Sequence record: MW598459
Reading direction: 5' to 3' (one strand)
Length of the DNA stretch: 64,000 nucleotides
Source: Escherichia phage vB_EcoM_RZ
This document shows, piece by piece, positions 3,426-63,957 of the stretch. Under the pieces are notes generated by a model. The model ran no database searches. It saw only the letters and a list, made by a program, of their open reading frames with translations, and was not told where the DNA came from. Made by a program: the position numbers and the translations under genes. The first letter of the stretch is position 1, and each line of letters begins with the position of its first letter.

Positions 3426-3664
3426 TTGGTTTCCTTGATGATAATTACTTGTGCGTTTGATTTACGCTCAGCAACGAGTGCCCAGATAAATGCAATAAAC
3501 CATCCGACCATTGTCCAACCTAACAGGAGGTTAACAAAGAAGATTCCGCAATTACTTTTGGTTCCTCGCAGTAGCGCGATAATCCATGGCAGAAAATATG
3601 CCAGTGCAGCCAGGAAGAAAGAACCAGCACCAAGAACAACAGTACCTGCAATTAATGTTTCCAT
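3422..3664 (-). CDS. imm: Imm-like superinfection immunity membrane protein (80 aa, two TM helices)
   Basis: Track ORF immediately downstream of gene 43 as imm is in T4; size and two-TM topology fit; sequence identity not verified. Confidence 0.45.
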   Translation of the reverse strand: METLIAGTVVLGAGSFFLAALAYFLPWIIALLRGTKSNCGIFFVNLLLGWTMVGWFIAFIWALVAERKSNAQVIIIKETK

Positions 3665-3704
3665 TTTAATATCCTTAATTTAATCATCAGTAGTTGATGG
3701 AGTA

Positions 3705-3734
3705 ATCATACGGCAATCCTTTGCCGTTGTAAAC
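3705..3734 (-). promoter_or_regulatory. Early sigma70-type promoter (-35 GTTTAC, 18 bp spacer, -10 TATGAT) with hairpin CGGCAA/TTGCCG in the spacer
   Basis: Read on minus strand directly between gene 43 stop and imm-like start; followed by conserved leader ..CCATCAACTACTGATGA. Confidence 0.5.
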
Positions 3735-3736
3735 AC

Positions 3737-6451
3737 TTAAAAATCAAACATATCAAAAAGAGATGCTTTTTTCTCGTAATCAACCTTAGCTGCTTCAGAG
3801 AACCCTGTTAATGGTTTGACAAAAGTCTTCTGGAACAGTGTGTTGTAGTCCATCCACTGCAAGACTTGGTCACGAATTTCAATCGGGAGTTCAATCCCTG
3901 ATGGCCATGCAATCACGGTTTCGCCAAACGGGTTACCAACTTTAAGAGGAAGCACATACACCTTTTCCCCTTCCATGATTTGTGGAACAGTCTTCAGACC
4001 TTTAGTTGCACGCATATATGCAAGCACACCTTTGATATGAGCCGGGCACTTAAATCCAGGGAAACCGCCTTCATTATATTTCTGGATGTTGTTAACCGAT
4101 GATACACCTGCGATGGTCATGTAGTTAAGCTCATTAAATTCCTTATTGAATTCCTTGAAGTATGTCTGCAGAGATTCTTCACCTTCTTGCAACATGCGGC
4201 GGATACATTCTTTCAGAGCTTTCTGACATGCCTTTGGAGTGCTCGACTTTTGAGTTTCCAGACCCATGATTTTCAGTTTCGGAACAGCATATCGTGTGCC
4301 TTCCATATCGTACACGTTCAACGCATAACGCTTCTTCGCCGTCCAGAACCCACCAACACCTTTAGAACCCAGCGGAGGACATGCAATCGCTTCACGGTCC
4401 ATAAACATAAGGTGCTGTTTGTTGTTCATGTATTCAGCCAGCTCACGGAAAGCTTTATCGATTGCCGGTTCCAGACGGTCTTTCGCGAACTTGTCCATGA
4501 AGTCAACCAGGTGGTTTGTATCACGGAATTTAGATTCACCACCAACCTTTTTAATCAGGTTATCGCACTGGATATAAATGGAGTCAGTGTCACCATAGAA
4601 TACGTAGGTTTCGCCGTTTGTCCCACAGACACTATCGAAGTATTCGTTAACTTTACGCTCAATCCACTGCAATGCAAGTTGTCCGAAAGATGTAATCGCG
4701 GTTGCATTTCGCAGGTCAAAGTAACGGAACCAGATATTACCCAGAGCGCCATAACAACTGTTGATAAGCAGTTTACGGTTAATCTGTGCGGTCATGCCTG
4801 CAACTTCTTCCATTTGTGCTTTGTACAACATACCATTCAGAACTGTTTGATTCAGTCCATGCAAGGTTGTTTTCATATTGTCATCAAAGTCATGACGATA
4901 ATCAACTTCAGGCTCGGTTGTACCAGTTCCTGGATTACGCAGAGCTTCCTTAATCAGTTCACCATTACGTTGAGCCGCAAGCATATAGCCTTTGTGTTCT
5001 TTACGCTGATTAAACACCTTGGTGACTTCTGTTGGAATAATACCTGCAACATCTTTAAAATACATCATACCATTTGGGGCACAACTAAATGTATCAGATG
5101 GACGGTCAGCAGTTCCTGCGATGTATTCATACATCTGGGCTGGAGCAAATGAACCGGCAATCGTTTCGGGACTGATGTTAATCTGTCGGATGATGCTCGG
5201 ATACAGAGATGTTAAGTCACAGCTCATTACATATTTGTATGCGTTCGGAATAGGTTCCTTAACAAATGCACCGGGGAACGATTGACGAACATGCGATTTG
5301 GTTTCCGGAATGACTTTGTTTTGAGTCTTCAGGCTGTTAAAGATAATCGCATCCCAAGTTTTGATTGGGCTGAATACAGACTGAATCTGCATCTTTGCAT
5401 AATAACCCATTGACTGACTCAGGTTAATAAACTGCCGCTTACGGTCAATCTGCACAACACGATAAACGTCGATGATGTTATAAGAAATATACCGTTGGTG
5501 ATTTGATTCACGCAGTTTAGAAATTGGGCCATCATATGGGAGTTTACCAACACCCAGTTCAGATTCCGCAACATAATCCAACGAATAAGACGGTTGATTT
5601 GTGAAGCTGAACTTTTTATACAGGTCCAGATAATCCAGAACAGAGATACCCAGAATCTGAATGATTTCTTGTTCTTCACCGAAACCGTTGTTAATGACCT
5701 TAACTTTTGTACGACGATGCGGACTCAGACGTTTTGCCGTAGCTTCACCAAATACATTTTTAAGACGGTTGTAGATATATGGAATATCAAACTTCTCGAT
5801 GTTCCAACCAGTTAACATAACCGGAGTTTTCTCGTTCCAGAATACCAAATACTGCTGGAGCATTTCTTCTTCTGAATCGAAAGCCATATAAACAATTTTT
5901 TCCAGGATTTCTTCAGGGACTTCATCGCCGCCATCTTCTTGCAGCTTAGCAGCAATATCAATAGACCATTGCTCCACAGTGGCGTATGGTGAGCTCAAAA
6001 GGTCAAAGACATAGAATTTATCGTCTACCGAATCATAGTGCGTCAGGGCATCAATAGGGTGACGTGCTTCAGACGGCTCAGGGAACCCATCGGGAGATGT
6101 CACCTCGATATCGAAGTTAGCAACACGGATTTTACTTGAATCATATTTGATTTCGTGTGGGTAACGGTCGGACAAGTATGCAAGTTTAAAGTCATCCATA
6201 CCCATAGCTTCGAGACCCATGTCATTCATTCGCTTCATCCACTGGGATGCATCACGCATGGAATCGAATTCTTTTTTCACACAACCTTTATTATAGATGT
6301 CTGTATACTTTGCAGCCTGGTCTTCACGGGCGTGCATAAACAAGCATGGAGCATAAGGGATTTCACGAACACGTTCATGACCGTTCTTGTCAATGTATCG
6401 TTCGAGCAGATTGTCACCGATTTGTTCGATAGTTAAATAAAATTCTTGCAT
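3737..6451 (-). CDS. 43: DNA polymerase gp43 (family B, 904 aa)
   Basis: Track ORF; FDIE exonuclease motif, DxxSLYPS, KxxxNSxYG and YGDTDS polymerase motifs; close to T-even/RB69 gp43 from memory. Confidence 0.97.
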   Translation of the reverse strand: MQEFYLTIEQIGDNLLERYIDKNGHERVREIPYAPCLFMHAREDQAAKYTDIYNKGCVKKEFDSMRDASQWMKRMNDMGLEAMGMDDFKLAYLSDRYPHEIKYDSSKIRVANFDIEVTSPDGFPEPSEARHPIDALTHYDSVDDKFYVFDLLSSPYATVEQWSIDIAAKLQEDGGDEVPEEILEKIVYMAFDSEEEMLQQYLVFWNEKTPVMLTGWNIEKFDIPYIYNRLKNVFGEATAKRLSPHRRTKVKVINNGFGEEQEIIQILGISVLDYLDLYKKFSFTNQPSYSLDYVAESELGVGKLPYDGPISKLRESNHQRYISYNIIDVYRVVQIDRKRQFINLSQSMGYYAKMQIQSVFSPIKTWDAIIFNSLKTQNKVIPETKSHVRQSFPGAFVKEPIPNAYKYVMSCDLTSLYPSIIRQINISPETIAGSFAPAQMYEYIAGTADRPSDTFSCAPNGMMYFKDVAGIIPTEVTKVFNQRKEHKGYMLAAQRNGELIKEALRNPGTGTTEPEVDYRHDFDDNMKTTLHGLNQTVLNGMLYKAQMEEVAGMTAQINRKLLINSCYGALGNIWFRYFDLRNATAITSFGQLALQWIERKVNEYFDSVCGTNGETYVFYGDTDSIYIQCDNLIKKVGGESKFRDTNHLVDFMDKFAKDRLEPAIDKAFRELAEYMNNKQHLMFMDREAIACPPLGSKGVGGFWTAKKRYALNVYDMEGTRYAVPKLKIMGLETQKSSTPKACQKALKECIRRMLQEGEESLQTYFKEFNKEFNELNYMTIAGVSSVNNIQKYNEGGFPGFKCPAHIKGVLAYMRATKGLKTVPQIMEGEKVYVLPLKVGNPFGETVIAWPSGIELPIEIRDQVLQWMDYNTLFQKTFVKPLTGFSEAAKVDYEKKASLFDMFDF

Positions 6452-6536
6452 TTGGTTTCCTTTATAGTCGAGTGATTGACTTTTGTTTTATGACTTGACG
6501 CTATTATACTACAAAAGGGACCGAAGTCCCTTTGCT

Positions 6537-6764
6537 TTAAATTTCTATTGTACGACGTTCGATAGTCGGATTACCATTTTCATCTTTAGTTCTAACCATA
6601 GCCTGGAAGACTCTCTGCCCAGGATGTAATAATTTATTGAGTTCCTTTTGAAATTCTATTTGAAGTTCTTTGGAAAGGTCAAAAATAGTTTGAGTTGGGG
6701 AAAGTCCATATATTTCTTTAAGGCGTTCACATGTTTCAATTTCATGCTTCATATCAATTACCAA
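6537..6764 (-). CDS. Hypothetical protein (75 aa)
   Basis: Track ORF co-directional, downstream of regA. Confidence 0.4.
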   Translation of the reverse strand: MVIDMKHEIETCERLKEIYGLSPTQTIFDLSKELQIEFQKELNKLLHPGQRVFQAMVRTKDENGNPTIERRTIEI

Positions 6765-7122
6765 TTGTGTATTTGGCTACAAGCTTCCAGTCGTCTTTTT
6801 GTTTGAAGGAGATAACACGGAAGTTGTTTGTTACTGCGAACAATTCATTATGCTCTTCTTCTTTGATAGCGATTAAGCCCCAGTCTTCAAGCAGTTGGGC
6901 AATGGAATCACGGCGCTGATAGTCTTCGCCGTCAATATCCACCTGACGACCATCCATGCGCAGCATTTCTTTGAAGTGAACAATATAATAACGACCTTGC
7001 TTCTGGAGGATGTGACAGCTCTGGTACAGCACACGGTCTTTATTATTTGCGATGCCCATACGGGTCAGAGTTTCTTTAACTTTCAGGAAGTCTTCAGGTT
7101 GCTTTAATGTAATTTCAATCAT
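6754..7122 (-). CDS. regA: Translational repressor RegA (122 aa)
   Basis: Track ORF; MIEITLK.PEDFLKVKETLTRMGIANNKD matches T4 RegA from memory; same length. Confidence 0.9.
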   Translation of the reverse strand: MIEITLKQPEDFLKVKETLTRMGIANNKDRVLYQSCHILQKQGRYYIVHFKEMLRMDGRQVDIDGEDYQRRDSIAQLLEDWGLIAIKEEEHNELFAVTNNFRVISFKQKDDWKLVAKYTIGN

Positions 7123-7702: not shown

Positions 7703-8652
7703 TTCATTTCCCCAGCCAGTTGAGCAAACAGATAAGTCAAGTGAACTTCAGTATTGGCTGCAATGCCATGGTACTGATTATTCTCACCCACAATCTCATA
7801 CATACGGATGATGCTTGCACCAGTCAGTTTGCCATACATTTCATCAGCCAGCTTTGCAATGAAGCTTGAATAATCATTTGCATGCTTAGGAGCCAGCCCA
7901 CGGAGAACTTTAAAGTTACGGTCCTTAAGGGCATCAATCACATCATCAATTGGTGTGCGATTGTTTGTCACGATGCTCAGAATACCGGAATCGATAACAC
8001 CTTTTGCAGAGTAACGGTCAAGCTCATTAATTGTCTTACGCAGGTCCGGGAAGTTATGCTTAACCAGAGCAGCAACAACTTTCAGGTCTTCGATTTCAAC
8101 GCCTTCGTTTTTACATATCGCGACTGCACGATGAATCATCTCTTTCATCATAGTAGTCTGGTCAGCTGGAGTTGCTTCACCAAACTTAATTACGCGGCAA
8201 CGAGACTGCAACGGAGTGATGATACCATCGATATTGTTCGCGGTCATAATGATTGAACAGTTGCTCGAATAAGCTTCCATAAAGCTACGAAGGTGTCGTT
8301 GTGATTCAGCCAGACCCGCACGGTCAAACTCATCGATAACGATTACCTTACGGCGTCCTTCGATTGATTTAGATGATGCAAAGCGAGTCAATTCATTACG
8401 CACAAAGTCAATTCGACAATCGGAGCCGTTAACAAACAGCATATCAGAATTCGTATCCGCACACATAGCTTTTGCAACTGTTGTCTTACCAGTACCAGGG
8501 GAAGAACTGACCAGAATCAAGTTAGGAATCAAACCTTTTTTAACAATCGCCTCTAATGTTTCTTTATCATGAGCCGGAAGAATACACTCTGATAATGTAC
8601 CTGGACGGTATTTTTGTTCCCACATGAATTCTTTGTCATTAACCGTTAACAT
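7693..8652 (-). CDS. 44: Clamp loader ATPase subunit gp44 (319 aa)
   Basis: Track ORF; AAA+ Walker A SSSPGTGKTT and Walker B VIVIDEFD; synteny. Confidence 0.9.
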   Translation of the reverse strand: MLTVNDKEFMWEQKYRPGTLSECILPAHDKETLEAIVKKGLIPNLILVSSSPGTGKTTVAKAMCADTNSDMLFVNGSDCRIDFVRNELTRFASSKSIEGRRKVIVIDEFDRAGLAESQRHLRSFMEAYSSNCSIIMTANNIDGIITPLQSRCRVIKFGEATPADQTTMMKEMIHRAVAICKNEGVEIEDLKVVAALVKHNFPDLRKTINELDRYSAKGVIDSGILSIVTNNRTPIDDVIDALKDRNFKVLRGLAPKHANDYSSFIAKLADEMYGKLTGASIIRMYEIVGENNQYHGIAANTEVHLTYLFAQLAGEMKWL

Positions 8653-8708
8653 ATATTTTCCTCATATTAGTTTCTACTTTGTACTCCATGGGGCCGAAGC
8701 CCCATTTA

Positions 8709-9404
8709 TTAATCTTGGAATTCGTGGCTAGAGCCTTGTTCCATTGCAATCACATAGCTTGCTTGTGTGCCTTCAAACTTCGTAGCAAATTTATCATCTT
8801 TTGCCCAAAGCATAACACGATAATCAGCCGGAATCATTTTCATGTTCAGTTTGTTAATGATAAATTTAAACGCTGCATCACCTTCGTAATCGCCACACAC
8901 CAGGGAATACAATGGACGCGCTAACTCTTTATCTTCGAGCTGATTATAACCATGGATAACAATCTTACCGTCTTTGTTGGTGATTGCAAAAGTATCCAGA
9001 GACAAACCACCAGCCACACGCAGAAGCTGTTGCAGGTCACTACCTTTCAGGTCGAAAATAACCTTAGCTACCGGGAAAGGAATCTTCTTAGCAGGGAACA
9101 CGATAGTGCTCGGGTCTGCAGCAGGCCAGTGAATCGTTGAACGTTGGTCTTTGATAATGATGTTTGATGCATCTTCAGCCAGAGATACTTCAGCTTGGTC
9201 AGTTACCAGGCCCAGGATACTTAAGAAGCCGTTTAGGTCATAAATTGCAGCTTCAAAGTCGATTGTATCATTGATTTCGGCTTCGCCATATGACGCTCCA
9301 GTTACGGAACGAGTCAGGATGGTATTACCTGGCTTAAGCATAATGCCAGAGTAAATGGAAGTGAAGTTTTTCAGAACTGCGATAGTGTCTTTAGAGAATT
9401 TCAT
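8709..9404 (-). CDS. 45: Sliding clamp gp45 (231 aa)
   Basis: Track ORF; matches T4 gp45 from memory (MK.SKDT...LKNF..I.SGIMLK, WPAADPST). Confidence 0.9.
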   Translation of the reverse strand: MKFSKDTIAVLKNFTSIYSGIMLKPGNTILTRSVTGASYGEAEINDTIDFEAAIYDLNGFLSILGLVTDQAEVSLAEDASNIIIKDQRSTIHWPAADPSTIVFPAKKIPFPVAKVIFDLKGSDLQQLLRVAGGLSLDTFAITNKDGKIVIHGYNQLEDKELARPLYSLVCGDYEGDAAFKFIINKLNMKMIPADYRVMLWAKDDKFATKFEGTQASYVIAMEQGSSHEFQD

Positions 9405-9431
9405 TTAATTACCTTTTATTCAAATCAAAAA

Positions 9432-9863
9432 TTAAGCAACAACTGCCATTTGTTTGCGGATAGCTTCCGGAAGAGATTCAATATACTCTGGAAGTTGTGC
9501 AGCAATAATAGAACCAGCTTGCACCAGATGGTCATCAGAGTTAACACAATAATCATCTTCAAGACGTTCGGAACCGTCACGGTCGATAACCAGTTTAGCA
9601 CCAGCAGCCAGTGAATCGTTGTAGTGATTACGCATCAGTTCAATCCACTTATCAGATACATCAGTATCAATCACACCGTATAGCATGAATTTAATTTCTT
9701 GCGGCAGAGACTGCAGACGGGTAGCAGATGCTTCATCGCATGCCAGGACCCAGGATTTACGAACACGGTTTTGGTTATGCGGGTTAGCGTCAGTGCGGAT
9801 GGTTTTAACTTGGATATCTTTAGCAGTTACGTTGTTCATAATATTCTCTCTATTCATTATCAA
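9432..9863 (-). CDS. rpbA: RNA polymerase-binding protein RpbA-like
   Basis: Track ORF in the T4 rpbA position between 45 and 46; assignment by synteny; start may be an internal Met. Confidence 0.5.
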   Translation of the reverse strand: MIMNRENIMNNVTAKDIQVKTIRTDANPHNQNRVRKSWVLACDEASATRLQSLPQEIKFMLYGVIDTDVSDKWIELMRNHYNDSLAAGAKLVIDRDGSERLEDDYCVNSDDHLVQAGSIIAAQLPEYIESLPEAIRKQMAVVA

Positions 9864-10055
9864 TTAATCAAAGTATTCATATGCGAACCAGGCATTGTGT
9901 CTGTTCGCGATTATTTTAACATATTCTTCACCGAAAGCGTTTTGCAAGTCACGTTCAGTGACAAGGTGTTCATCTTTCGAAAAGGTATTAACTAACACAT
10001 ACCGTTTAATTTCAGGGACAGCCAATAAATGCTGCCCGGTTAAGAAGTCAGCCAT
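9864..10055 (-). CDS. Hypothetical protein (63 aa, 45.2-like position)
   Basis: Track ORF co-directional between rpbA and 46. Confidence 0.4.
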   Translation of the reverse strand: MADFLTGQHLLAVPEIKRYVLVNTFSKDEHLVTERDLQNAFGEEYVKIIANRHNAWFAYEYFD

Positions 10056-10090
10056 AATAGCCTCTATTATAACATCCTTGTTTTAAAACA

Positions 10091-11773
10091 TTATTCCATA
10101 ACAGTGAATCGACCAACTTTTTTCATCTGGAGATGTTGTCCGTATGCTTCCGGGTCATGGTCTCGGTGACTGATGATAAAGATGTTGGTGTCTTCCAATT
10201 TGTTCAGGATGGTAGCAATTGCTTTAACACCCTCTACGTCAGTGGCCGAGTCAAAAACTTCATCCAGAATCAATGTGTTAATATTAACACCAGATACTTT
10301 CGCAGCAATATCGCGCCATGTAAACAGCAATGCAATATCTATACGAGCTTTTTCGCCCTGGCTAAATGATGCATAACTAAAGTCTTCACGACCACGAGAT
10401 TTAATCGTTTCGTTGAACTCTTCATCTAACGTAAAGCTATAATCAGCTTCCATAACTTTAAGATAAGCGTTTATCTGCTTATTAAAGATAGGAATATATT
10501 TCTTAATAATCGCGCCCTTAATACCAGAATCTTTCAACATATCCGTTAAGATACCACGTTGATATTTTTCCATCACAAGGTCGGATTTTTGTTTGACTAT
10601 TTTATCAAGCTGGTCTTGAAGCATTTTAATGTCTGCTGCATGGTCAATAAATTCCGACTTAGCTTGCTCGATTAATGCTTTAACCTTTTTAGCTTTTTCG
10701 ACAGTCTGGACTAAGGTTTGTTTCTTAGTTTGAATGTCTTGAGCTATTGTACGCTGGTTTTGTCTTGCCTTGGTATACGCATCAAATTGCTCTTGAACAG
10801 CATTCTGGCGAGCTTTATGCTTATCAGCTGATGCATTACATTCTTCAATCTTTGACTCAATCCTGGCGACAATAGGGTCTCCTGGATGCAACTGACTGGC
10901 ACAAGTCTGACAACAACCGCCCTTCTCGTACAGACCAACAACCTTTCGGTAATCGTCAATCTTCGATTTAATCAGGAATGATTCCTGCTTTAACTTTGTG
11001 AGTTCGTGCTCGGGGTCTTCTCCCAAAATTATCTCGGTCAGTCTTGTTGTTGCTTCTTCGATAGTTGTCTTGATTCCACGTGCTTCTGTAGCAAGTTCAT
11101 CATACATCGTTTGCAGCCGCAACAGATTATCACCTGACAATTTTCTTTGACGGTCTTCGTTGTCCTGATAGATTTTAATCTGTTGAACGATACCGTCATG
11201 CTGTACATCCATAACCTGGATTTGGCTATTGACTTCGCGGATAAGAGATTTGTTCAGCTTATCCATATCGGCCAGTACAGAAACCTCTAAAAGGTCTTCG
11301 ACAAGCTTTCTTCTGGCAGGAGTGGATAGGCCCATAAAAGGGGTATATCCAGCTGTGCCGAGTACGACAATTTGTTTGAAACTGGCGTATGACATTCCGA
11401 TAAGCTGTTCAAATTCCGCTTGGAAGTCTTTACTGCTGGCAGATTCATCAAGACGTTTACCGCCACAAGAGATTTCAAAAACATTGGGTTTTTGCCCGCG
11501 TTTGATATAGTATTCTTTTCCATCATATTCCATCCACAATTCAACGAGCATATCTTTTTTGTTGCTCGAGTTAATCAACTGGCCTTTCTTTACATCACGG
11601 AAAGGCTTACCGAACATAGCAAAGGTAACCGCTTCAAGGAACGTAGATTTACCCGCGCCATTCTTGCCGGTGACCAGAGTTTTCTGGACTTTATCCAGTT
11701 CAACAGTAATCGGTTGAGCACCAACCGACATAATATTTTTATAGATAACTTTCTTAAGCTTAAAAGTCTTCAC
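10091..11773 (-). CDS. 46: Recombination nuclease subunit gp46 (SbcC/Rad50-like ATPase, 560 aa)
   Basis: Track ORF; N-terminal Walker A GKNGAGKST, long coiled coil with CxxC zinc hook (GGCCQTC), C-terminal Walker B LILDEVFD. Confidence 0.9.
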   Translation of the reverse strand: MKTFKLKKVIYKNIMSVGAQPITVELDKVQKTLVTGKNGAGKSTFLEAVTFAMFGKPFRDVKKGQLINSSNKKDMLVELWMEYDGKEYYIKRGQKPNVFEISCGGKRLDESASSKDFQAEFEQLIGMSYASFKQIVVLGTAGYTPFMGLSTPARRKLVEDLLEVSVLADMDKLNKSLIREVNSQIQVMDVQHDGIVQQIKIYQDNEDRQRKLSGDNLLRLQTMYDELATEARGIKTTIEEATTRLTEIILGEDPEHELTKLKQESFLIKSKIDDYRKVVGLYEKGGCCQTCASQLHPGDPIVARIESKIEECNASADKHKARQNAVQEQFDAYTKARQNQRTIAQDIQTKKQTLVQTVEKAKKVKALIEQAKSEFIDHAADIKMLQDQLDKIVKQKSDLVMEKYQRGILTDMLKDSGIKGAIIKKYIPIFNKQINAYLKVMEADYSFTLDEEFNETIKSRGREDFSYASFSQGEKARIDIALLFTWRDIAAKVSGVNINTLILDEVFDSATDVEGVKAIATILNKLEDTNIFIISHRDHDPEAYGQHLQMKKVGRFTVME

Positions 11774-26874: not shown

Positions 26875-27081
26875 TCACTTGCGACGACGTTTTGGTAATG
26901 GTTTAGGGAAGAACATTGCTTTACCTGCAGGGGTCAAAGTCACACGCAAAGCATTACCAATACCAAGGGATGCTTTAACCAGACCTTTGGCTTTTAACTC
27001 ACCAAATGCTTGACGTTGTTCAGGGTCACGAGTGTTAACCATCAGACCTTTTTCACCAGCAGCTTTGATTAATTCTAACAT
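26875..27081 (-). CDS. Hypothetical basic protein (68 aa)
   Basis: Track ORF. Confidence 0.4.
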   Translation of the reverse strand: MLELIKAAGEKGLMVNTRDPEQRQAFGELKAKGLVKASLGIGNALRVTLTPAGKAMFFPKPLPKRRRK

Positions 27082-27122
27082 TTTATTCTCCGTTTGTTTA
27101 TTTGGTAACTCAGTATGGAATC

Positions 27123-27152
27123 ATTATGCATCATGACCATCTGGTTGTACAC
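27123..27152 (-). promoter_or_regulatory. Early promoter (-35 GTGTAC, 18 bp, -10 CATAAT)
   Basis: Read on minus strand upstream of ORF 26875..27081. Confidence 0.5.
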
Positions 27153-27198
27153 ATATACTAAATAAAAATACTTAATAAAACCATAAAGGAGAAAGTTT

Positions 27199-27945
27199 AT
27201 GATTTTATCCGGAAGAACTGTTGATGAACTCAATGAAAAAGTCCAGGCTGCCTTGGCTGATAATTGGTATTTGTTTGGTTCTACTATGGTGTTGCCGAAT
27301 ACCCCTACAGATAGCAAAGAGCGTTTTTTCCAAACTATGTCCAGCTCGGAAACTCAGATACCGGGTCCGCTTGGTCCCAAAGGAGAACCGGGTGTACCCG
27401 GACCAAAAGGAGACCCAGGTGGGGATGGAAAATCTTCTTATCAGATATGGCTTGACTTGGGAAATACAGGAACTGTTGATGATTTTTTAACTGATACAGC
27501 AGGAAAGAGGGAAAAATCCGAGGTGTTTTGGAGTGGTATAAACGTTCTATTAACTAATGGTACGACTTCAAACATAATTAGTGTTTTAAAGGGGATTCCA
27601 CCGACTGCAGGGACTCTATCTCCGTTTTTTAGAACCACTGATGATAAGTTGTGGCCATATAACCAAGACAGAAGCCTAATGTTTAAACTCAACCTTATTG
27701 GTAATTTTGCAGGAGCCTCGCAAGCTCGAAGTATAACATTAAATTTCGTTGGAACCAACGGAAACACTTATATACAGAATCGTCCGGAAAATGCTACAGA
27801 TATTTTGTCTTTTACAACGTTCTTTAGCATTGATAAAGATGGGGCAATGGCAACCAATGGTACAGCTATAACTGTTATGCCAAATGGCGGCAACTTTACA
27901 ATAACCTCCGCATTGTTAGTAGCCGAACAAACAGTGACTTCATAA
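27199..27945 (+). CDS. Collagen-like repeat protein (248 aa), hypothetical; only plus-strand gene in a minus-strand region
   Basis: Track ORF; AAGGAG RBS 7 nt upstream of ATG; seven Gly-X-Y triplets; Asn/Thr/Gly-rich C-terminal half. Confidence 0.6.
   Translation: MILSGRTVDELNEKVQAALADNWYLFGSTMVLPNTPTDSKERFFQTMSSSETQIPGPLGPKGEPGVPGPKGDPGGDGKSSYQIWLDLGNTGTVDDFLTDTAGKREKSEVFWSGINVLLTNGTTSNIISVLKGIPPTAGTLSPFFRTTDDKLWPYNQDRSLMFKLNLIGNFAGASQARSITLNFVGTNGNTYIQNRPENATDILSFTTFFSIDKDGAMATNGTAITVMPNGGNFTITSALLVAEQTVTS
27364..27429 (+). repeat. Gly-X-Y collagen-like triplet run (GPLGPKGEPGVPGPKGDPGGDG)
   Basis: Seen directly in the translation of ORF 27199..27945. Confidence 0.8.
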
Positions 27946-27967
27946 ACAAAAAAGGGCCATCCGGCCC
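27946..27967. terminator. Hairpin GGGCC-ATCC-GGCCC flanked by A-run; strong intrinsic terminator for minus-strand transcripts, possibly bidirectional
   Basis: Perfect 5-bp GC stem; T6 follows on minus strand; sits between convergent genes. Confidence 0.55.
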
Positions 27968-28163
27968 TTAGATTGCACTCCAAAAATTATGGAATCTTAT
28001 AGTATTGATAGCCCAGTTAACAAACCTGCGAGTTTGTTTGGGAGTTGGTTTACATATGTACTTATTGTTGATTCGTCTGCCAGTTTCCCGACAGACTGCT
28101 TCGAGATACCAGCGCCGACCTTTATTAGGTCTTCCGTATGATAAGAAGACCTTCATTTCTTCA

Positions 28164-29174
28164 TTAACGATAATAGGAATTGTGGTTGTCAAGGTATACC
28201 TCTTCAACAAACTTGTCCCAGAACTTCATGTCTACCTTATCAGGCATACCATTCTTAGCAGCCTGGATGGCCAGAACTTCAACTAAATCGACAGTATCTT
28301 CAAGAAGTTCTTGAACTTCTTTAAATGGTAATTCACCAGCTTTAATCAGCTTAATGATAGAGGCTTCACGCAATGGGAATACCAAGTCACCTGTTTGGTA
28401 GATTTCCATCAATTGATACCCTGCACGATAAGCATGGCTCAGTGCTTTCCAATCAATACCTTCGTTAGCTTCTGCTTTACGAGCACGTTCACCATATTCG
28501 GCGTCGAGTTTATTCAGAGATTGCTTGAGCTCGATTAATGACAGAGTAGTTTGGTACTTACGTCCGAGAACAGTATAGAACGTTTGTGGACCTGTTTTCT
28601 CATGGTTATGGAATACCCATTCACAGAACTCGTTTTCAGGGAGTCTGTGTTTGATATCTTCTACCTTAGTACGACGAAGTCTATCAGGGATTCCTTCTTG
28701 ATAATCGACCCACTGTTCAGGAATCTGGTTAACAATTGCCAGTACACCACGCAGTGCAGCCAATCGAGAACCTTTAACACCATATTTGGAAGCTTGCTTA
28801 CGGACGTACCCCAAATAGGCTTTCATGTTAGTTGTATAGAACCGCGAACGGTTGTCTTGAATAAACTTCCATACATCTGGTAAATCGGATTTGACAACCA
28901 GGTTAGCCGGGGTGTGAATCATGTCCAGAGCAACGGTTTCGCCTTCGGCTGCCAGTTTAAAGAAATATTTCAGGCTATAAAGTTCATGGTCAATATCGTC
29001 TTTTGTATTTTTGGTAGCCGTGTTATTCGTGTTCAGGTTTGTATGGTTCATCGCGGTTCCGAGCAGGATATCTCGCGGATGAGGAACAAAGATTTCTTTA
29101 AAATCAACATCAGATTCCGGAGTGCTTGTTCCATAAAGATGGCTACCGAAGTAGCCTTTCATAACTGTTCTCAT
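28164..29174 (-). CDS. Pol-beta superfamily nucleotidyltransferase-like protein, hypothetical function
   Basis: Track ORF 28164..29204; ATG at 29174 gives MRTVMKGYFGSHLYGTSTPESDVDF (GS-x9-SDVDF nucleotidyltransferase motif); family not established. Confidence 0.55.
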   Translation of the reverse strand: MRTVMKGYFGSHLYGTSTPESDVDFKEIFVPHPRDILLGTAMNHTNLNTNNTATKNTKDDIDHELYSLKYFFKLAAEGETVALDMIHTPANLVVKSDLPDVWKFIQDNRSRFYTTNMKAYLGYVRKQASKYGVKGSRLAALRGVLAIVNQIPEQWVDYQEGIPDRLRRTKVEDIKHRLPENEFCEWVFHNHEKTGPQTFYTVLGRKYQTTLSLIELKQSLNKLDAEYGERARKAEANEGIDWKALSHAYRAGYQLMEIYQTGDLVFPLREASIIKLIKAGELPFKEVQELLEDTVDLVEVLAIQAAKNGMPDKVDMKFWDKFVEEVYLDNHNSYYR

Positions 29175-32164: not shown

Positions 32165-32190
32165 AGCGGAATACTAGTTAGTAACTGTAT

Positions 32191-32466
32191 TTATAATCTT
32201 TTAAATTTGAAACAATACATTGCAAATAAATCAGAAAAATGTCTATCAACCCATATTCTTTGCACTGGACTAGTAACAGTCAACATATAATGTGATTTTT
32301 GTAAATTTATTCCATTTTTATTCGGGCATTCTTTATTAACAGAATGGTACGTGCTTGCTACTATTTCAATTTCCCTTTCATATCTCTCGCTATCTGTTTG
32401 TGTGGGGATAAATGCAATCCCAGCAATAACAAAAATAGAGATATACGTCCAAACCTTGTATATCAT
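32191..32466 (-). CDS. Hypothetical membrane protein (91 aa)
   Basis: Track ORF; hydrophobic N-terminus. Confidence 0.4.
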   Translation of the reverse strand: MIYKVWTYISIFVIAGIAFIPTQTDSERYEREIEIVASTYHSVNKECPNKNGINLQKSHYMLTVTSPVQRIWVDRHFSDLFAMYCFKFKRL

Positions 32467-46973: not shown

Positions 46974-47050
46974 TGGTCGGGGTGGTGGGATTCTAACCCA
47001 CAACCTACGGTTTAGAAGACCGTTGCTCTATACAATTGAGCTACACCCCG
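46974..47050 (-). tRNA. tRNA-Arg (anticodon UCU)
   Basis: Hand-folded cloverleaf: acceptor CGGGGTG/CACCCCG, D-arm GCTC..GAGC, anticodon stem ACGGT/ACCGT with loop CUUCUAA, T-arm GTGGG-TTAGAAT-CCCAC, 3' ACCA encoded. Confidence 0.75.
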
Positions 47051-47127
47051 GGTGGCCCCATCCAGATTTGAACTGGTAACCTTTCCCTTATGAGGGGACT
47101 GCTGCTAACCAATTGAGCTACAGGGCC
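47051..47127 (-). tRNA. tRNA with CAU anticodon (Met or Ile2)
   Basis: Hand-folded: acceptor GGCCCTG/TGGGGCC (two GU pairs), anticodon loop CUCAUAA, T-arm CCAG-TTCAAAT-CTGG; abuts tRNA-Arg. Confidence 0.65.
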
Positions 47128-53729: not shown

Positions 53730-53757
53730 ATAGCCTCCTAATAAATATTGATATACT

Positions 53758-53765
53758 TATTTATA
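53758..53765 (-). promoter_or_regulatory. Late promoter TATAAATA for gene 4
   Basis: Exact T4 late consensus on minus strand 28 nt upstream of gp4 ATG; part of palindrome AGCCTCC...GGAGGCT shared with gene 53 RBS. Confidence 0.55.
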
Positions 53766-63052: not shown

Positions 63053-63060
63053 TATAAATA
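63053..63060 (+). promoter_or_regulatory. Late promoter TATAAATA for gene 9
   Basis: Exact late consensus about 28 nt upstream of gp9 ATG. Confidence 0.6.
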
Positions 63061-63087: not shown

Positions 63088-63957
63088 ATGATTAATCAAA
63101 CCCCAAAATTATTAGTAGACATCGGCGAGATTGGTAACGCCAGCACCGGTGATATTCTATATGAAGGCGGTCGTAAACTGAACGTGGATTTAGACAGTTT
63201 GTATAATACATTCGGCGACCAGCGTCTGTACTCTGTGAACAATGGAGAAAACTCCCAGGTACTTCATGCTACTGGCTACTATCAAAAAGCCACAAATATC
63301 ATCGAATGGAACTCAACTGTTGCTCTCGGTTCTATGCGGGATGTCAATACTGCCGAAGGCGTTATCACTGCAAGAATTGCAAAAGGTAAAGCAGGCGAAG
63401 GTGTTATCTTTATTAACTCCAATGGTTCATTATCCACCTCGTTGCCTCTGGAAGTTGAACTACAAGGCACAGATTCATTCCTGACTGCTGCAACGAACAA
63501 AATGAAATTTACTCAGCCTTATACAAAAATTACATTGTGGTGTATTGACGATGCTAACGGCGTAGGGACCTGGGACTACAAAATTGAAAGTATGTTTGGC
63601 AACCAATCTGTATTGCTCGACAAAACATACAATATGAGCTCGGTTGTTCGTGATATTCCACTTGCTTTCCGTGCAGATTATAAAACTATCAAATTGATGC
63701 TGACGGCTATTTCAACAGACGAAACTAAATACAAAGCATCAGAAATATTACTTTACATCGACCTTAAGGACCGCAAGGTATATAGCACAGAATACGCTGT
63801 AATCAGACGTGGACAAACCAATGAAGAAGATGAGATATATGCCATCGATTTTAGAATTGATAACCAGGATATCATTCAGGCGGCTATAAGCTCACCCACT
63901 GCCATGAAGCTCGCTATTAAAGTAATTTCCGCCCAAACAATCGGAGTACCGGTATAA
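63088..63957 (+). CDS. 9: Baseplate wedge / long tail fiber socket protein gp9 (289 aa)
   Basis: Track ORF; size and synteny with T4 gp9. Confidence 0.88.
   Translation: MINQTPKLLVDIGEIGNASTGDILYEGGRKLNVDLDSLYNTFGDQRLYSVNNGENSQVLHATGYYQKATNIIEWNSTVALGSMRDVNTAEGVITARIAKGKAGEGVIFINSNGSLSTSLPLEVELQGTDSFLTAATNKMKFTQPYTKITLWCIDDANGVGTWDYKIESMFGNQSVLLDKTYNMSSVVRDIPLAFRADYKTIKLMLTAISTDETKYKASEILLYIDLKDRKVYSTEYAVIRRGQTNEEDEIYAIDFRIDNQDIIQAAISSPTAMKLAIKVISAQTIGVPV

Follow-up and report, generated by a model that had tools for sequence, protein, structure and literature searches.

A knob protein with a DUF1737-type domain and a collagen-like tract, encoded on the opposite strand of a T4-like early region: a candidate head decoration fibre

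Introduction

Why would a T4-like phage carry a single plus-strand gene in the middle of its minus-strand early region, and where does the product of this gene act? The question is raised by a locus of Escherichia phage vB_EcoM_RZ (sequence record MW598459), of which a stretch of 64,000 nucleotides, here called the window, was analysed; it comes from a Gaprivervirus, a VR7-like relative of T4. The original prediction for this locus was a lone collagen-like gene, acquired horizontally as a moron, perhaps encoding a structural decoration or a host-interaction protein, and outside the conserved T4 core. The annotation "tail needle knob" is already known; what is new is the architecture of the protein and its implication of a head anchor.

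The Gene and Its Conservation

The gene was found exactly as predicted at positions 27199..27945 of the plus strand, where an open reading frame (ORF) with an ATG start encodes a DUF1737-collagen-knob protein of 248 amino acids (the stop codon is inside these coordinates). The strong ribosome-binding site is there as well, with AAGGAG at 27186-27191, 7 nt 5′ of the ATG. The isolation of the gene was corroborated in EAWsc9, a close annotated relative, in which about 105 consecutive minus-strand CDS extend between gene 41 and the segB-ipI region, with only one on the plus strand, the knob gene. The frame is intact in all nine homologs compared, and the homolog comparisons give dN/dS values of 0.11-0.24 (0.13-0.24 among the Gaprivervirus carriers). 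Because of these values, the nine intact homologs and a Pfam match of the product to Phage_tail_NK (E=2.6e-32), the ORF is confirmed as a real gene under purifying selection and not a chance ORF. Full-length matches to the protein are present in 40 phage records. No signal peptide or transmembrane segment was found in the window protein, and the PADLOC and NCBIfam searches gave no match, defence families included; a defence or counter-defence role was therefore left unsupported by both. An Rfam scan of the window returned two tRNAs only, both away from the knob locus.

Distribution and Origin

Among 244 matching records, coverage of the locus reaches 80% or more in only 7, and only seven related records have the knob gene at the slot of the window. 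In relatives, empty and alternative states of this slot are both seen. The placement of the gene outside the conserved T4 core was thus borne out, its presence varying among close relatives while the flanks are conserved. VR7 itself lacks the knob gene and has an ORF196w collagen protein and a second Hoc-like gene. Whether these two tend to be missing where the knob gene is present was considered, but the genomes that carry either are too few to tell.

The horizontal import that had been suggested did not hold up as a recent event. In five or more T4-like genera, full-length homologs are located in the same nrdC-rI hyperplastic region, and this shared location points to an old and mobile member of the T4-like accessory pool. 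Composition gives no foreign sign either: the gene has a GC content of 41.1% and the window one of 39.5%, its GC3 and its CAI-like index fall within the range of the genome, and among the 51 long ORFs of the window the gene ranks 30th for GC and 10th for the CAI-like index. A foreign origin by composition was ruled out on these measures. Regarding moron status, the locus consists of one ORF, equipped with a promoter-like leader and a terminator, which lies between genes that are adjacent in relatives; its promoter is canonical only in homologs, and the distinct base composition of a moron is not seen.

Other genomic contexts are found as well. In the head/packaging module of Carvajevirus siphophages, the gene directly after that of the large terminase encodes a full-length homolog, and Aeromonas Biquartavirus has a knob protein encoded between gp23 and gp24; the N-terminus of the Aeromonas homolog is tail-fibre-like.

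Domain Architecture

The C-terminal half had been described as Asn/Thr/Gly-rich and reminiscent of fibre or adhesin domains. N, T, G and S together account for 40% of it (24% in the long ORFs of the window), and searches in Pfam, PDB and Foldseek identify it as a fibre-tip or adhesin-type module, the Sf6 tail-needle knob (residues 101-248; 27499..27942, plus strand). Residues 99-244 match PF16532 (Phage_tail_NK) with 112.3 bits against a cut-off of 27, PHROG 1030 is matched with E=3.3e-67, and a PDB profile search retrieves 3RWN (E=2e-47) and also 4K6B, the knob residues only being matched. The AF2 model has a pLDDT of 70-94 over the knob and aligns in Foldseek to 3RWN with a TM score of 0.86, an rmsd of 1.9-2.4 Å and 38-40% identity; the following ranks are TNF-like lectins, C1q heads and PRD1 P5, with the phi812 central spike knob among the next-best. 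By sequence and by its predicted TNF-like jelly-roll fold, this part is a member of the knob family. Both 3RWN and 4K6B contain three chains and, as these solved homologs and the collagen tract imply, the window knob would also trimerise. The comparison of C6 with AnYang, which have 100% identical N-terminal domains and 70% identical knobs (that of C6 being 94% identical to the window's), shows that phages exchange the knob as a module. It is proposed to be the distal ligand-binding tip.

The collagen-like tract is read directly at residues 56-79 (27364..27435, plus strand). Of the earlier description, the tract GPLGPKGEPGVPGPKGDPGGDG (residues 56-77) stands, but the count of seven Gly-X-Y triplets becomes eight once GKS is included; these eight are uninterrupted and contain 7 Pro. 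The shortness of the tract leaves its Pfam Collagen (PF01391) score at 16.8 bits (E=0.0057), under the cut-off of 27.2; the longer tracts of P0008, P0011 and P0012 carry PF01391 in precomputed annotations. The number of triplets in homologs goes from 0 to 20 or more, and the substitution P58L in the tract is private to the window copy. We propose that the tract forms a short triple-helical stalk, of about 7 nm by estimate. It is followed by the connector SYQIWLDLGNTGTVDDFLTDT (residues 80-100; 27436..27498, plus strand), whose motif SYQIWLD...DFL is nearly invariant in alignment A1. The connector recurs beside collagen segments of phage fibre proteins, is repeated in P0011, P0012, P0017 and P0018, and is matched by PHROG tail-fibre families.

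The N-terminal domain (approximately residues 1-50; 27199..27348, plus strand) is of the DUF1737 type and is the proposed virion (capsid) anchor. Pfam DUF1737 (PF08410), whose cut-off is 24 bits, is matched by the window protein under threshold, with 13.7 bits and E=0.058, and by the Pseudotevenvirus homolog P0015 with 21.8 bits (E=1.8e-4). However, a profile of the T4-like N-terminal domains, searched against 1.8 billion representatives, recovers proteins that Pfam itself scores as DUF1737 above its cut-off, and hhalign aligns the domain to a DUF1737 set including phi24B gp84 with 98.7% probability and E=3.9e-16. In the full-length AF2 model, built from 11 sequences, residues 1-101 stayed under a pLDDT of 50; the domain alone, with a deeper alignment, was used instead and gave a model with a pLDDT of 81.7, in which a strand (residues 2-5) and a helix (8-20) precede a beta-hairpin (strands 30-35 and 38-48). 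BFVD matches to this model carry the DUF1737 annotation, with TM scores of 0.7-0.86. According to these profile methods and models, the domain is homologous to DUF1737 and has the same predicted fold, a helix plus a three-stranded antiparallel sheet. The PDB sequence search with the domain profile returned only chance matches to GCN4 coiled coils, and Foldseek against PDB nothing significant, the phi24B model being apparently absent from the copy searched.

The meaning of this domain comes from a cryo-EM preprint on the Stx phage phi24B, where DUF1737 anchors a decoration protein to the capsid, is described in its capsid-bound form as a helix and three strands, and carries varied C-terminal cargo across the family (bioRxiv 10.64898/2026.04.10.717836). 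In the present analysis, P0020 also has DUF1737 in duplicate ahead of another fibre-like protein. The anchoring Tyr42 of phi24B is without counterpart in the window loop PNTPTDSKE; several homologs have Tyr or Phe there. The N-terminal domain is common to myo- and siphophages whose tails are unrelated but whose heads are of the HK97 type, in agreement with a capsid anchor.

Expression Signals and the Junction

The leader of the cassette (27153..27198, plus strand), delimited by the alignment of relatives and a motif scan, contains two late-promoter-like motifs and the Shine-Dalgarno sequence. The motifs overlap, ACTAAATA at 27157-27164 and TAAAAATA at 27163-27170, and each differs from the late consensus at one core position. 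The leader is identical across the five Gaprivervirus carriers compared, all of which have this pair in place of TATAAATA. The late promoter that the original prediction proposed to look for is canonical in homologs but degenerate in the window: exact copies of TATAAATA stand at about -30 to -33 in C6, AnYang, fHe-Yen9-01 and PEi20 (homologs in Dhaka-, Teguna- and Kanagawavirus), and Pseudotevenvirus has CATAAATA. The late genes of the window genome use (T/A)ATAAATA, and the gene at 63088 has TATAAATA at -35. As a validated late-promoter variant in this genome ACTAAATA was rejected, its sole other plus-strand copy (63724) being intragenic. It is important to note that position -13 of the late motif is variable, and that CTAAATA is a predicted functional late motif in Aeh1 (PMC1524935). 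A promoter scan found no plus-strand sigma-70-type promoter upstream of the gene. Late expression of the window gene is a prediction that forms part of the best overall reading.

A GC hairpin at the end of the gene had also been predicted. It is present (GGGCC-ATCC-GGCCC, 27952..27969, with a 7-bp stem, -12.7 kcal/mol and z=-3.2) but its orientation is mainly that of a minus-strand terminator. An A-tract flanks one side, and the plus strand offers only UUAGAUU downstream. Because the U-tract UUUUUUGUUU is on the minus strand, the hairpin scores as a terminator, and this is its predicted function, for the converging transcript from the nrdC.11 side; its service as the 3′ end of the knob mRNA is probable. 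It overlaps the stop codon of a small minus-strand ORF (27968..28210). A hairpin is found at the gene end in all homologs examined and, among carriers, the stems are kept while the loops vary (ATCC, AGAT, GTAT, ATAT).

The left boundary of the cassette is an early-type sigma-70-like promoter (TGTACA-17-CATAAT, 27123..27151, minus strand), detected by promoter scan, which serves the minus-strand gene 26875..27081 and is conserved in the knob-less UPEC07, P896, VR7 and MN01. Homology to the empty-site relatives, P896 and UPEC07, ends past 27152, the junctions being at 27152 and about 27970. At the position of the window hairpin these relatives have another one, and their minus strand reads GGACCC-CGAA-GGGTCC, T-tract, GTGTAC-N17-CATAAT, Shine-Dalgarno and ATG. 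A stem-loop upstream of an early promoter, Shine-Dalgarno sequence and start, at an indel boundary, is the arrangement defined as PeSL (PMC4122927), to which the junction conforms in its predicted elements; the early promoter of the window is its promoter half. The comparison of filled and empty sites indicates that the knob gene is an indel cassette between the stem-loop and the early promoter of the relatives' PeSL-type junction. The empty site also contains TACTTTTTAAAATA, which resembles the AnYang late promoter TACTTTTATAAATA. It was considered to be a remnant of it, which would imply deletion of an ancestral cassette; the likeness may simply come from an AT-rich upstream element of the divergent early promoter.

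Proposed Role and Its Alternatives

The reading favoured here, with a probability of about 0.5, is that of an optional virion decoration fibre, made late in infection and anchored on the head by its DUF1737-type domain. The decoration or host-interaction role of the original prediction is where the present evidence points too. The protein would trimerise via its knob and collagen tract, as do the Sf6/HS1 knobs and collagen. The DUF1737 domain would hold it non-covalently on the capsid surface, as the phi24B gp84 domain is held at hexon centres; the collagen tract would be a spacer of variable length, and the knob a distal lectin- or adhesin-like binder, with which the phage would attach reversibly, and more readily, to host envelopes or to the environment. 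Such a protein would be a head fibre in the manner of Hoc, phi29 gp8.5 or SPP1 gp12, and dispensable for plaque formation. Knob swapping (C6/AnYang) and the span from 0 to 20 or more triplets speak for host interaction; the exact late promoters of homologs, the gene positions in Carvajevirus and Biquartavirus and the knob protein of Vi01-like virions speak for a late, structural context. By analogy with phi24B, the fibre probably sits on the head. Against this reading, the capsid role of DUF1737 comes from one preprint, on a podophage whose shell is T=9 and whose major capsid protein is a different one; the phi24B anchor is hexameric in the hexon pore and the collagen tract and knob are trimeric; Hoc, the occupant of hexon centres in T4, is also encoded by the Gaprivervirus and Dhakavirus carriers; and the off-consensus promoter, the missing phi24B tyrosine and the sub-threshold Pfam DUF1737 score of the window copy weigh on the same side. 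More tentatively, the protein may represent a C1q-like portable head fibre of T4-like phages and at least one siphophage genus, with a DUF1737 plug, an adjustable collagen stalk and a swappable knob, forming a second capsid adhesin beside or in competition with Hoc and travelling as an opposite-strand late cassette in PeSL junctions. In the searchable literature there is no direct report of expression or virion incorporation for the window protein or any full-length T4-like homolog, nor usable virion proteomics of full-length homologs (fHe-Yen9-01, RB43, PEi20, Carvaje), and the CBA120 paper does not mention orf226.

A virion fibre placed elsewhere, on the tail, baseplate or neck (as an accessory tail fibre, whisker or spike tip), whose knob would act near the cell surface at adsorption or DNA delivery like the Sf6 needle, is an unlikely alternative. 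The only experimentally placed knob members are the tail-needle tips of Sf6/HS1-type podophages, the phi812 central spike knob and PRD1 P5 are among the next-best folds, PHROG and GenBank annotations say "tail", the connector motif occurs in tail-fibre families, and the Aeromonas homolog begins like a tail fibre. However, the window protein lacks a gp26-like portal-plug domain or coiled-coil shaft and has instead its DUF1737-type N-terminus; the same N-terminal domain is found in myo- and siphophages with unrelated tails, and the homologs adjoin terminase or capsid genes, not tail genes. The T4 tail tip is gp5/gp5.4 and T4-like tails are not known to have a needle, which also argues against this placement.

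A late protein that is not stably in the virion, whether a trimeric lectin-like factor that lysis sets free in soluble form or a protein shed or cleaved from capsids, which would act on the environment, neighbouring cells or debris, is rather improbable. It would suit the late promoters of the homologs and the TNF-like lectin folds among the neighbours of the knob. It also has parallels in phi24B gp84, whose cargo is inferred to be cleaved from the DUF1737 anchor given the missing cryo-EM density (bioRxiv 10.64898/2026.04.10.717836), and in SPP1 gp12, described as binding capsids reversibly (Zairi et al., 2014, as related in PMC7602432). The window protein, however, has neither an esterase or other enzyme domain nor, evident in its sequence between the domains, an SSP-type cleavage motif as proposed for gp84, and mass spectrometry detected a knob protein in purified Vi01-like virions (PMC10892097). 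Still less probable is a gene decaying in Gaprivervirus, with an intact frame, a degenerate promoter and little or no protein. The replacement of TATAAATA in five carriers of a genus whose window genome has canonical late genes, and the private P58L, would agree with decay; the dN/dS values among Gaprivervirus carriers, the leader and hairpin stems kept while loops drift, and the tolerance at position -13 with the Aeh1 precedent run counter to it. Least credible of all is an early or middle moron that has no connection with the virion and does its work within the infected cell, for instance in superinfection exclusion, defence or counter-defence. The early-gene surroundings and the window copy's want of a canonical late promoter would favour it, but there is no plus-strand sigma-70-type promoter upstream, no transmembrane segment, signal peptide, PADLOC or NCBIfam match, all recognisable domains are of extracellular or structural types, and the homologs have exact late promoters.

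Implications

If the DUF1737 anchor works on T4-type heads, the head decoration fibre favoured here would be a third class of decoration in the T4 family after Hoc and Soc, with a modular binding tip that is exchanged among phages. This would be relevant to the adhesion of therapeutic T4-like phages to hosts or mucus, and the anchor might provide T4-type heads with a new scaffold for display. The label "tail needle knob", which implies a structure that T4-like phages lack, would be corrected. A late structural gene would be seen moving through an early hyperplastic zone inside a terminator/promoter junction, and both the PeSL shuffling model and, to contractile-tailed phages, the DUF1737 capsid-anchor family would be extended. 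If the protein is not on the head, it is an ordinary accessory fibre gene, annotated by homology already.

Comparison with Known Systems

The closest relative of the C-terminal 148 amino acids is the Sf6/HS1 needle knob (the gp9 C-terminal domain; PF16532; 3RWN, 4K6B), with about 40% identity; in both cases a fibrous protein has a TNF-like jelly roll as its very C-terminal part. The rest differs: the P22/Sf6 needles (gp26/gp9) have a portal-plug and a long trimeric coiled-coil shaft where the window protein has DUF1737 and collagen, and the window phage is a contractile-tailed, needle-less T4 relative. Since residues 1-100 consist of a DUF1737-type domain, collagen and connector, the protein is not a tail needle despite its GenBank name. 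The T4-like knob homologs were given as "function unknown" by Leavitt et al. (2013).

With phi24B gp84 and the NanS-p esterases the window protein shares the N-terminal domain of about 50 amino acids, homologous and with a helix and three-strand fold predicted alike, and the plan of an N-terminal anchor, a linker and an outward cargo encoded by a late gene (in the window, presumably late). The cargo is a SASA esterase plus a lectin domain in gp84, and a collagen stalk plus knob here; the capsid is the T=9 shell of phi24B in one case and a T4-type head (gp23, Hoc, Soc) in the other, where anchoring is predicted. SPP1 gp12, a collagen-like trimer on hexon centres (PMC7602432), phi29 gp8.5 and T4 Hoc are, like the proposed fibre, non-essential outward capsid decorations credited with adhesion, but they have no sequence or fold kinship to it. 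Hoc is a monomer of Ig-like domains. SPP1 gp12 has only 64 amino acids and no distal domain.

The overall layout (a short N-terminal attachment, a variable collagen helix and a C-terminal trimeric jelly-roll head) is that of C1q and adiponectin, and also of BclA from the Bacillus exosporium. C1q heads match the knob fold with E-values of about 4e-4 to 1e-3 at 6-14% identity, and the C1q/TNF likeness is an analogy or a very remote homology, not family membership. Finally, PeSL shuffling (Arbiol 2010, PMC2839356; Comeau 2014, PMC4122927) resembles the present case in the insertion at a stem-loop/early-promoter junction of a hyperplastic region. The cassettes described are co-oriented early ORFs flanked by PeSLs, whereas the window has an opposite-strand, late-type gene within the junction itself, with the stem-loop on one side of it and the -35 element on the other. 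Lambdoid morons, in turn, differ in composition from their host phage, while the window gene matches its own.

The gene and its surroundings

The knob gene is a plus-strand open reading frame (27199..27945) that begins with ATG, encodes 248 amino acids and carries AAGGAG 7 nt upstream of the start codon, in agreement with the original prediction of an ORF with a ribosome-binding site. The window comes from a Gaprivervirus (a VR7-like relative of T4), and its knob locus is 99.5% identical to that of phage DK-13. The annotated relative EAWsc9 has about 105 consecutive minus-strand CDS between gene 41 and the segB-ipI region, and the knob gene is the sole one on the plus strand, as expected for the lone plus-strand gene that had been described. 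Two adjacent tRNA genes (46977-47127, minus strand; Rfam RF00005) lie about 1.6 kb away from the position expected from EAWsc9, which implies an indel between the two genomes in the e-segB region. In the Yersinia phage vB_YenM_P8 (PP693301.1), many nrdC.x/mobD.x genes carry labels such as 'thioredoxin', 'tail tube protein' or 'thymidine kinase'; VR7 and EAWsc9 list them as 'hypothetical' or nrdC.x, and the vB_YenM_P8 labels look like an annotation carry-over error.

The knob gene is a real gene. Full-length matches were found by tblastn in 40 phage records, a small and coherent family was recovered from 5.8 billion proteins searched, the reading frame is unbroken in all nine compared sequences, and dN/dS is 0.11-0.24 in pairwise comparisons with eight homologs, wherever dS is unsaturated. 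The composition, proposed as a check on the suspected horizontal acquisition, turned out to be unremarkable: GC content is 41.1% (39.5% in the window), and neither GC3 nor a CAI-like index departs from the values spanned by the 51 long ORFs of the window. Within the gene, only the collagen tract is GC-rich (60%), because Gly and Pro codons demand GC.

Architecture of the protein

The N-terminal domain (residues 1-50) is kept in all full-length homologs. Against Pfam DUF1737 the window protein scores below threshold (E=0.058). Nevertheless, a profile of five T4-like N-domains recovered, from 1.84 billion representatives, stand-alone proteins of 50-64 aa and tandem-domain proteins that clear the DUF1737 cut-off, and hhalign of the T4-like N-domains with a DUF1737 set including phi24B gp84 gave 98.7% probability (E=3.9e-16, 51 columns). 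Modeled alone from a 14-sequence alignment (pLDDT 81.7), the domain has a strand (2-5), a helix (8-20) and a hairpin (30-35/38-48), and among predicted viral structures it matches several 'DUF1737 domain-containing' proteins (TM 0.7-0.86). Judged by profile and predicted fold, the window protein is a DUF1737 homolog, though under the Pfam cut-off. Elsewhere, tandem DUF1737 domains occur in some database proteins, among them P0020 (ahead of a repeat-rich fibre-like protein) and P0026; schizo-T4-like Vibrio phages (KVP40-like records) have small ORFs that resemble DUF1737 and stand alone, and Klosneuvirus-like giant viruses have DUF1737-annotated proteins (BFVD entries).

The collagen-like tract spans residues 56-79 and consists of eight uninterrupted Gly-X-Y triplets; the original prediction had recognized the tract and counted seven. 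In the first triplet, codon 58 (27370-27372) makes the Y residue a Leu (GPLGPK). This substitution is private to the window protein: Pro stands there (GPPGPK) in the other four carriers compared from Gaprivervirus. There are 8-9 triplets in Gapriver- and Dhakavirus, 15 in fHe-Yen9-01 and at least 20 in a metagenomic homolog, while Pseudotevenvirus and Carvajevirus homologs have none; this variable length would suit a spacer. The connector that follows (residues 80-100, SYQIWLDLGNTGTVDDFL) is nearly invariant across the family and is found again beside collagen segments of other phage fibre-like proteins.

The C-terminal half had been described as rich in Asn, Thr and Gly, and indeed N+T+G+S reach 40% in the last 148 residues against 24% in the window's long ORFs. 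It forms a knob (residues ~101-248) that matches Phage_tail_NK (PF16532, E=2.6e-32), PHROG 1030 and the solved Sf6 and HS1 tail-needle knobs (E=2e-47). Its AF2 model is confident (pLDDT 70-94) and superposes on 3RWN with a TM of 0.86; the next structural neighbors are TNF-like lectins (BC2L-C, PLTL), C1q heads, PRD1 P5 and the phi812 spike knob.

The modules have been exchanged. Between the dhakaviruses C6 and AnYang, N-domains are 100%, connectors 96% and knobs only 70% identical; between C6 and the window, knobs are 94% and N-domains 76% identical, with a dS of 0.13 in the knob and saturation upstream. The knob has therefore been swapped by recombination independently of the anchor, as is typical of host-interaction modules. 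In C6 (2264-3019 of its locus L010; AnYang counterpart, 3001-3759 of L004), likeness to the Gaprivervirus version extends over the knob, the hairpin and the flank with nrdC.11, a pattern that indicates inter-genus recombination with a breakpoint near residue 100.

The cassette and its slot

Homology to relatives without the knob gene ends after 27152 (GGTTGTACAC) and restarts at about 27970 (TTAGATTGCACTCC), two points that are linked in those relatives by TACTTTTTAAAATAAAAAAGGACCCCGAAGGGTCC. Read on the minus strand, TACTTTTTAAAATAAAAAAGGACCCCGAAGGGTCC comprises a stem-loop, a T-tract, an early-type promoter (GTGTAC-N17-CATAAT) and the next gene's SD and start; by these features it is a PeSL-type junction, a composite terminator/promoter element of a kind implicated in indels of T4-type hyperplastic regions (PMC4122927). 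In the window, the knob gene separates the junction into its two halves, and the hairpin differs from the empty-site one. The GC hairpin at which the gene was said to end does follow the stop codon and is stable (27952-27969, GGGCC-ATCC-GGCCC, -12.7 kcal/mol); because the U-tract belongs to the minus strand, the hairpin scores as terminator of the converging nrdC.11-side transcript and not of the knob gene. Among carriers the stems are kept and the loops vary (ATCC, AGAT, GTAT, ATAT), as expected of a selected structure.

The slot, between an RB69-ORF102c-like gene and nrdC.11 (27082-28163), occurs in at least five states among gapriverviruses: empty (P896), ORF100c only (UPEC07), ORF099c with ORF100c (VR7), a different 177-bp ORF (MN01), and the knob cassette. 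Only 7 of 244 matching records cover at least 80% of the 2.2-kb locus. In Dhaka-, Teguna- and Kanagawavirus the neighbors vary (nrdC.10/nrdC.11, or beside rI), and in Pseudotevenvirus a divergent methyltransferase gene starts 27 nt away from the knob gene and a PeSL is absent. All T4-like positions fall within the nrdC-rI hyperplastic region. The Kuttervirus knob ORF has likewise been reported as a 536-nt insertion (PMC5048108).

Expression signals

A search for a late promoter had been proposed. It succeeded in homologs from four Tevenvirinae lineages, in which the exact T4 late promoter TATAAATA lies at about -30 to -33 relative to the start codon (C6 and AnYang, Dhakavirus; fHe-Yen9-01, Tegunavirus; PEi20, Kanagawavirus) within surroundings that do not align. 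In Dhaka-, Teguna- and Kanagawavirus an early promoter runs divergently beside it, with the -35 element within 6-11 nt. Pseudotevenvirus has CATAAATA. The window and the four other Gaprivervirus carriers compared have only ACTAAATAAAAATA, in which two motifs overlap and each departs from the consensus at one core position. Position -13 of late promoters is variable, and CTAAATA has been predicted as the Aeh1 late motif (Nolan et al., 2006, PMC1524935). The window's own late genes use the canonical motif, for example TATAAATA at 63053-63060 (plus), 35 nt before the ATG at 63088. Canonical motifs also form a back-to-back pair at the strand switch near 53.7 kb (AATAAATA, 53740-53747, plus; TATAAATA, 53758-53765, minus), and TATAAATA is found at 32188-32195 (minus), 33 nt upstream of the rI homolog start. 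Otherwise ACTAAATA occurs on the window's plus strand in a single, intragenic copy. Late expression is thus well supported for the family and plausible, more weakly, for the window's copy.

Function and alternatives

The reading we favor, at a probability of about 0.5, is that the gene encodes a late-made, dispensable, trimeric decoration fibre in which the DUF1737-type domain would anchor the protein to the virion, most probably to the capsid, the collagen tract would form a stalk of about 7 nm (our own estimate) and the knob would serve as a distal binding module. The broader claim of a virion-associated accessory fibre is probable. The role of DUF1737 comes from a single unreviewed study, on a capsid unlike the T4 type: by virion proteomics and cryo-EM, residues 2-57 of the NanS-p esterase gp84 of the Stx phage phi24B, its DUF1737 domain, bind capsid hexons as a hexamer placed above their central pore, with one helix, three antiparallel strands and an anchoring loop residue, Tyr42, and various cargo domains follow DUF1737 in other proteins (2026 preprint, bioRxiv 10.64898/2026.04.10.717836). 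Full-length Carvajevirus (siphophage) homologs (45% identity over residues 2-246) start in overlap with the large terminase stop, directly 3' of that gene in the head/packaging module, and in Aeromonas Biquartavirus the major capsid protein and gp24 flank a knob protein of 288 aa whose N-terminus is fibre-like and of another type. Among the difficulties for the favored reading, the window's loop has no counterpart of the anchoring Tyr, and knob-gene carriers also encode Hoc, which occupies the hexon centres of T4. The hoc locus is itself polymorphic in Gaprivervirus: in VR7 (NC_014792.1, locus 7817-11175) it holds a 427-aa collagen-repeat protein without DUF1737 or knob (ORF196w), a second Hoc-like gene and hoc, and in the carrier EAWsc9 (locus 8721-9569) only a shorter, 281-aa Hoc that lacks one of the Ig-like repeats. 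ORF196w/197w are confined to VR7, VR5 and ESCO10, with fragments in VR25, VR26 and KIT01, and are never in one genome with the knob gene, in numbers too small to call exclusion. Gapriverviruses also encode the capsid vertex protein gp24 twice, as tandem paralogs (VR7 locus 3503-6067; EAWsc9 locus 4367-6931).

Attachment to the tail, baseplate or neck is unlikely, and is the strongest of the alternatives; it agrees with the existing GenBank label ('tail needle knob' or 'tail-NK domain-containing protein') for this well characterized knob family, and the genes beside the Carvajevirus and Biquartavirus homologs speak for the head. A late soluble or shed lectin-like factor, suggested by the TNF-like lectins among the knob's neighbors, is less probable again, and a 'putative tail needle knob' protein has been seen by mass spectrometry in virions of a Vi01-like phage (PMC10892097). 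That the Gaprivervirus lineage holds a decaying, poorly expressed copy would fit the off-consensus late promoter, which is a difficulty for the decoration fibre; set beside the unbroken frames and low dN/dS, it is improbable. Least credible is an early intracellular moron. The location in an early region would fit it; against it, no plus-strand sigma-70-type promoter was found upstream of the gene. A defence role was unsupported.

Comparison with known systems

Knob homologs in T4-like phages, including RB43, were noted earlier with function unknown; in P22 the knob is not essential and does not set host specificity, and needle-tip changes shift DNA-delivery kinetics (Leavitt et al., 2013, PMC3741392). 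In the literature searched, the three-part DUF1737-collagen-knob architecture, the attachment to the head and not the tail that it implies, and an opposite-strand late cassette positioned inside a PeSL junction are apparently undescribed. The hexameric DUF1737 ring of phi24B needs reconciling with the trimeric stalk proposed here. Hexon centres can accommodate a collagen-like trimer, as SPP1 gp12 demonstrates (PMC7602432), and three chains of a P0020-type tandem protein would supply six anchor domains, matching the phi24B count. By its knob the window protein belongs to the Sf6-type knob family; it lacks the plug and coiled-coil shaft of tail-needle proteins and thus falls outside that family, and its three-part layout is analogous to those of C1q and BclA.
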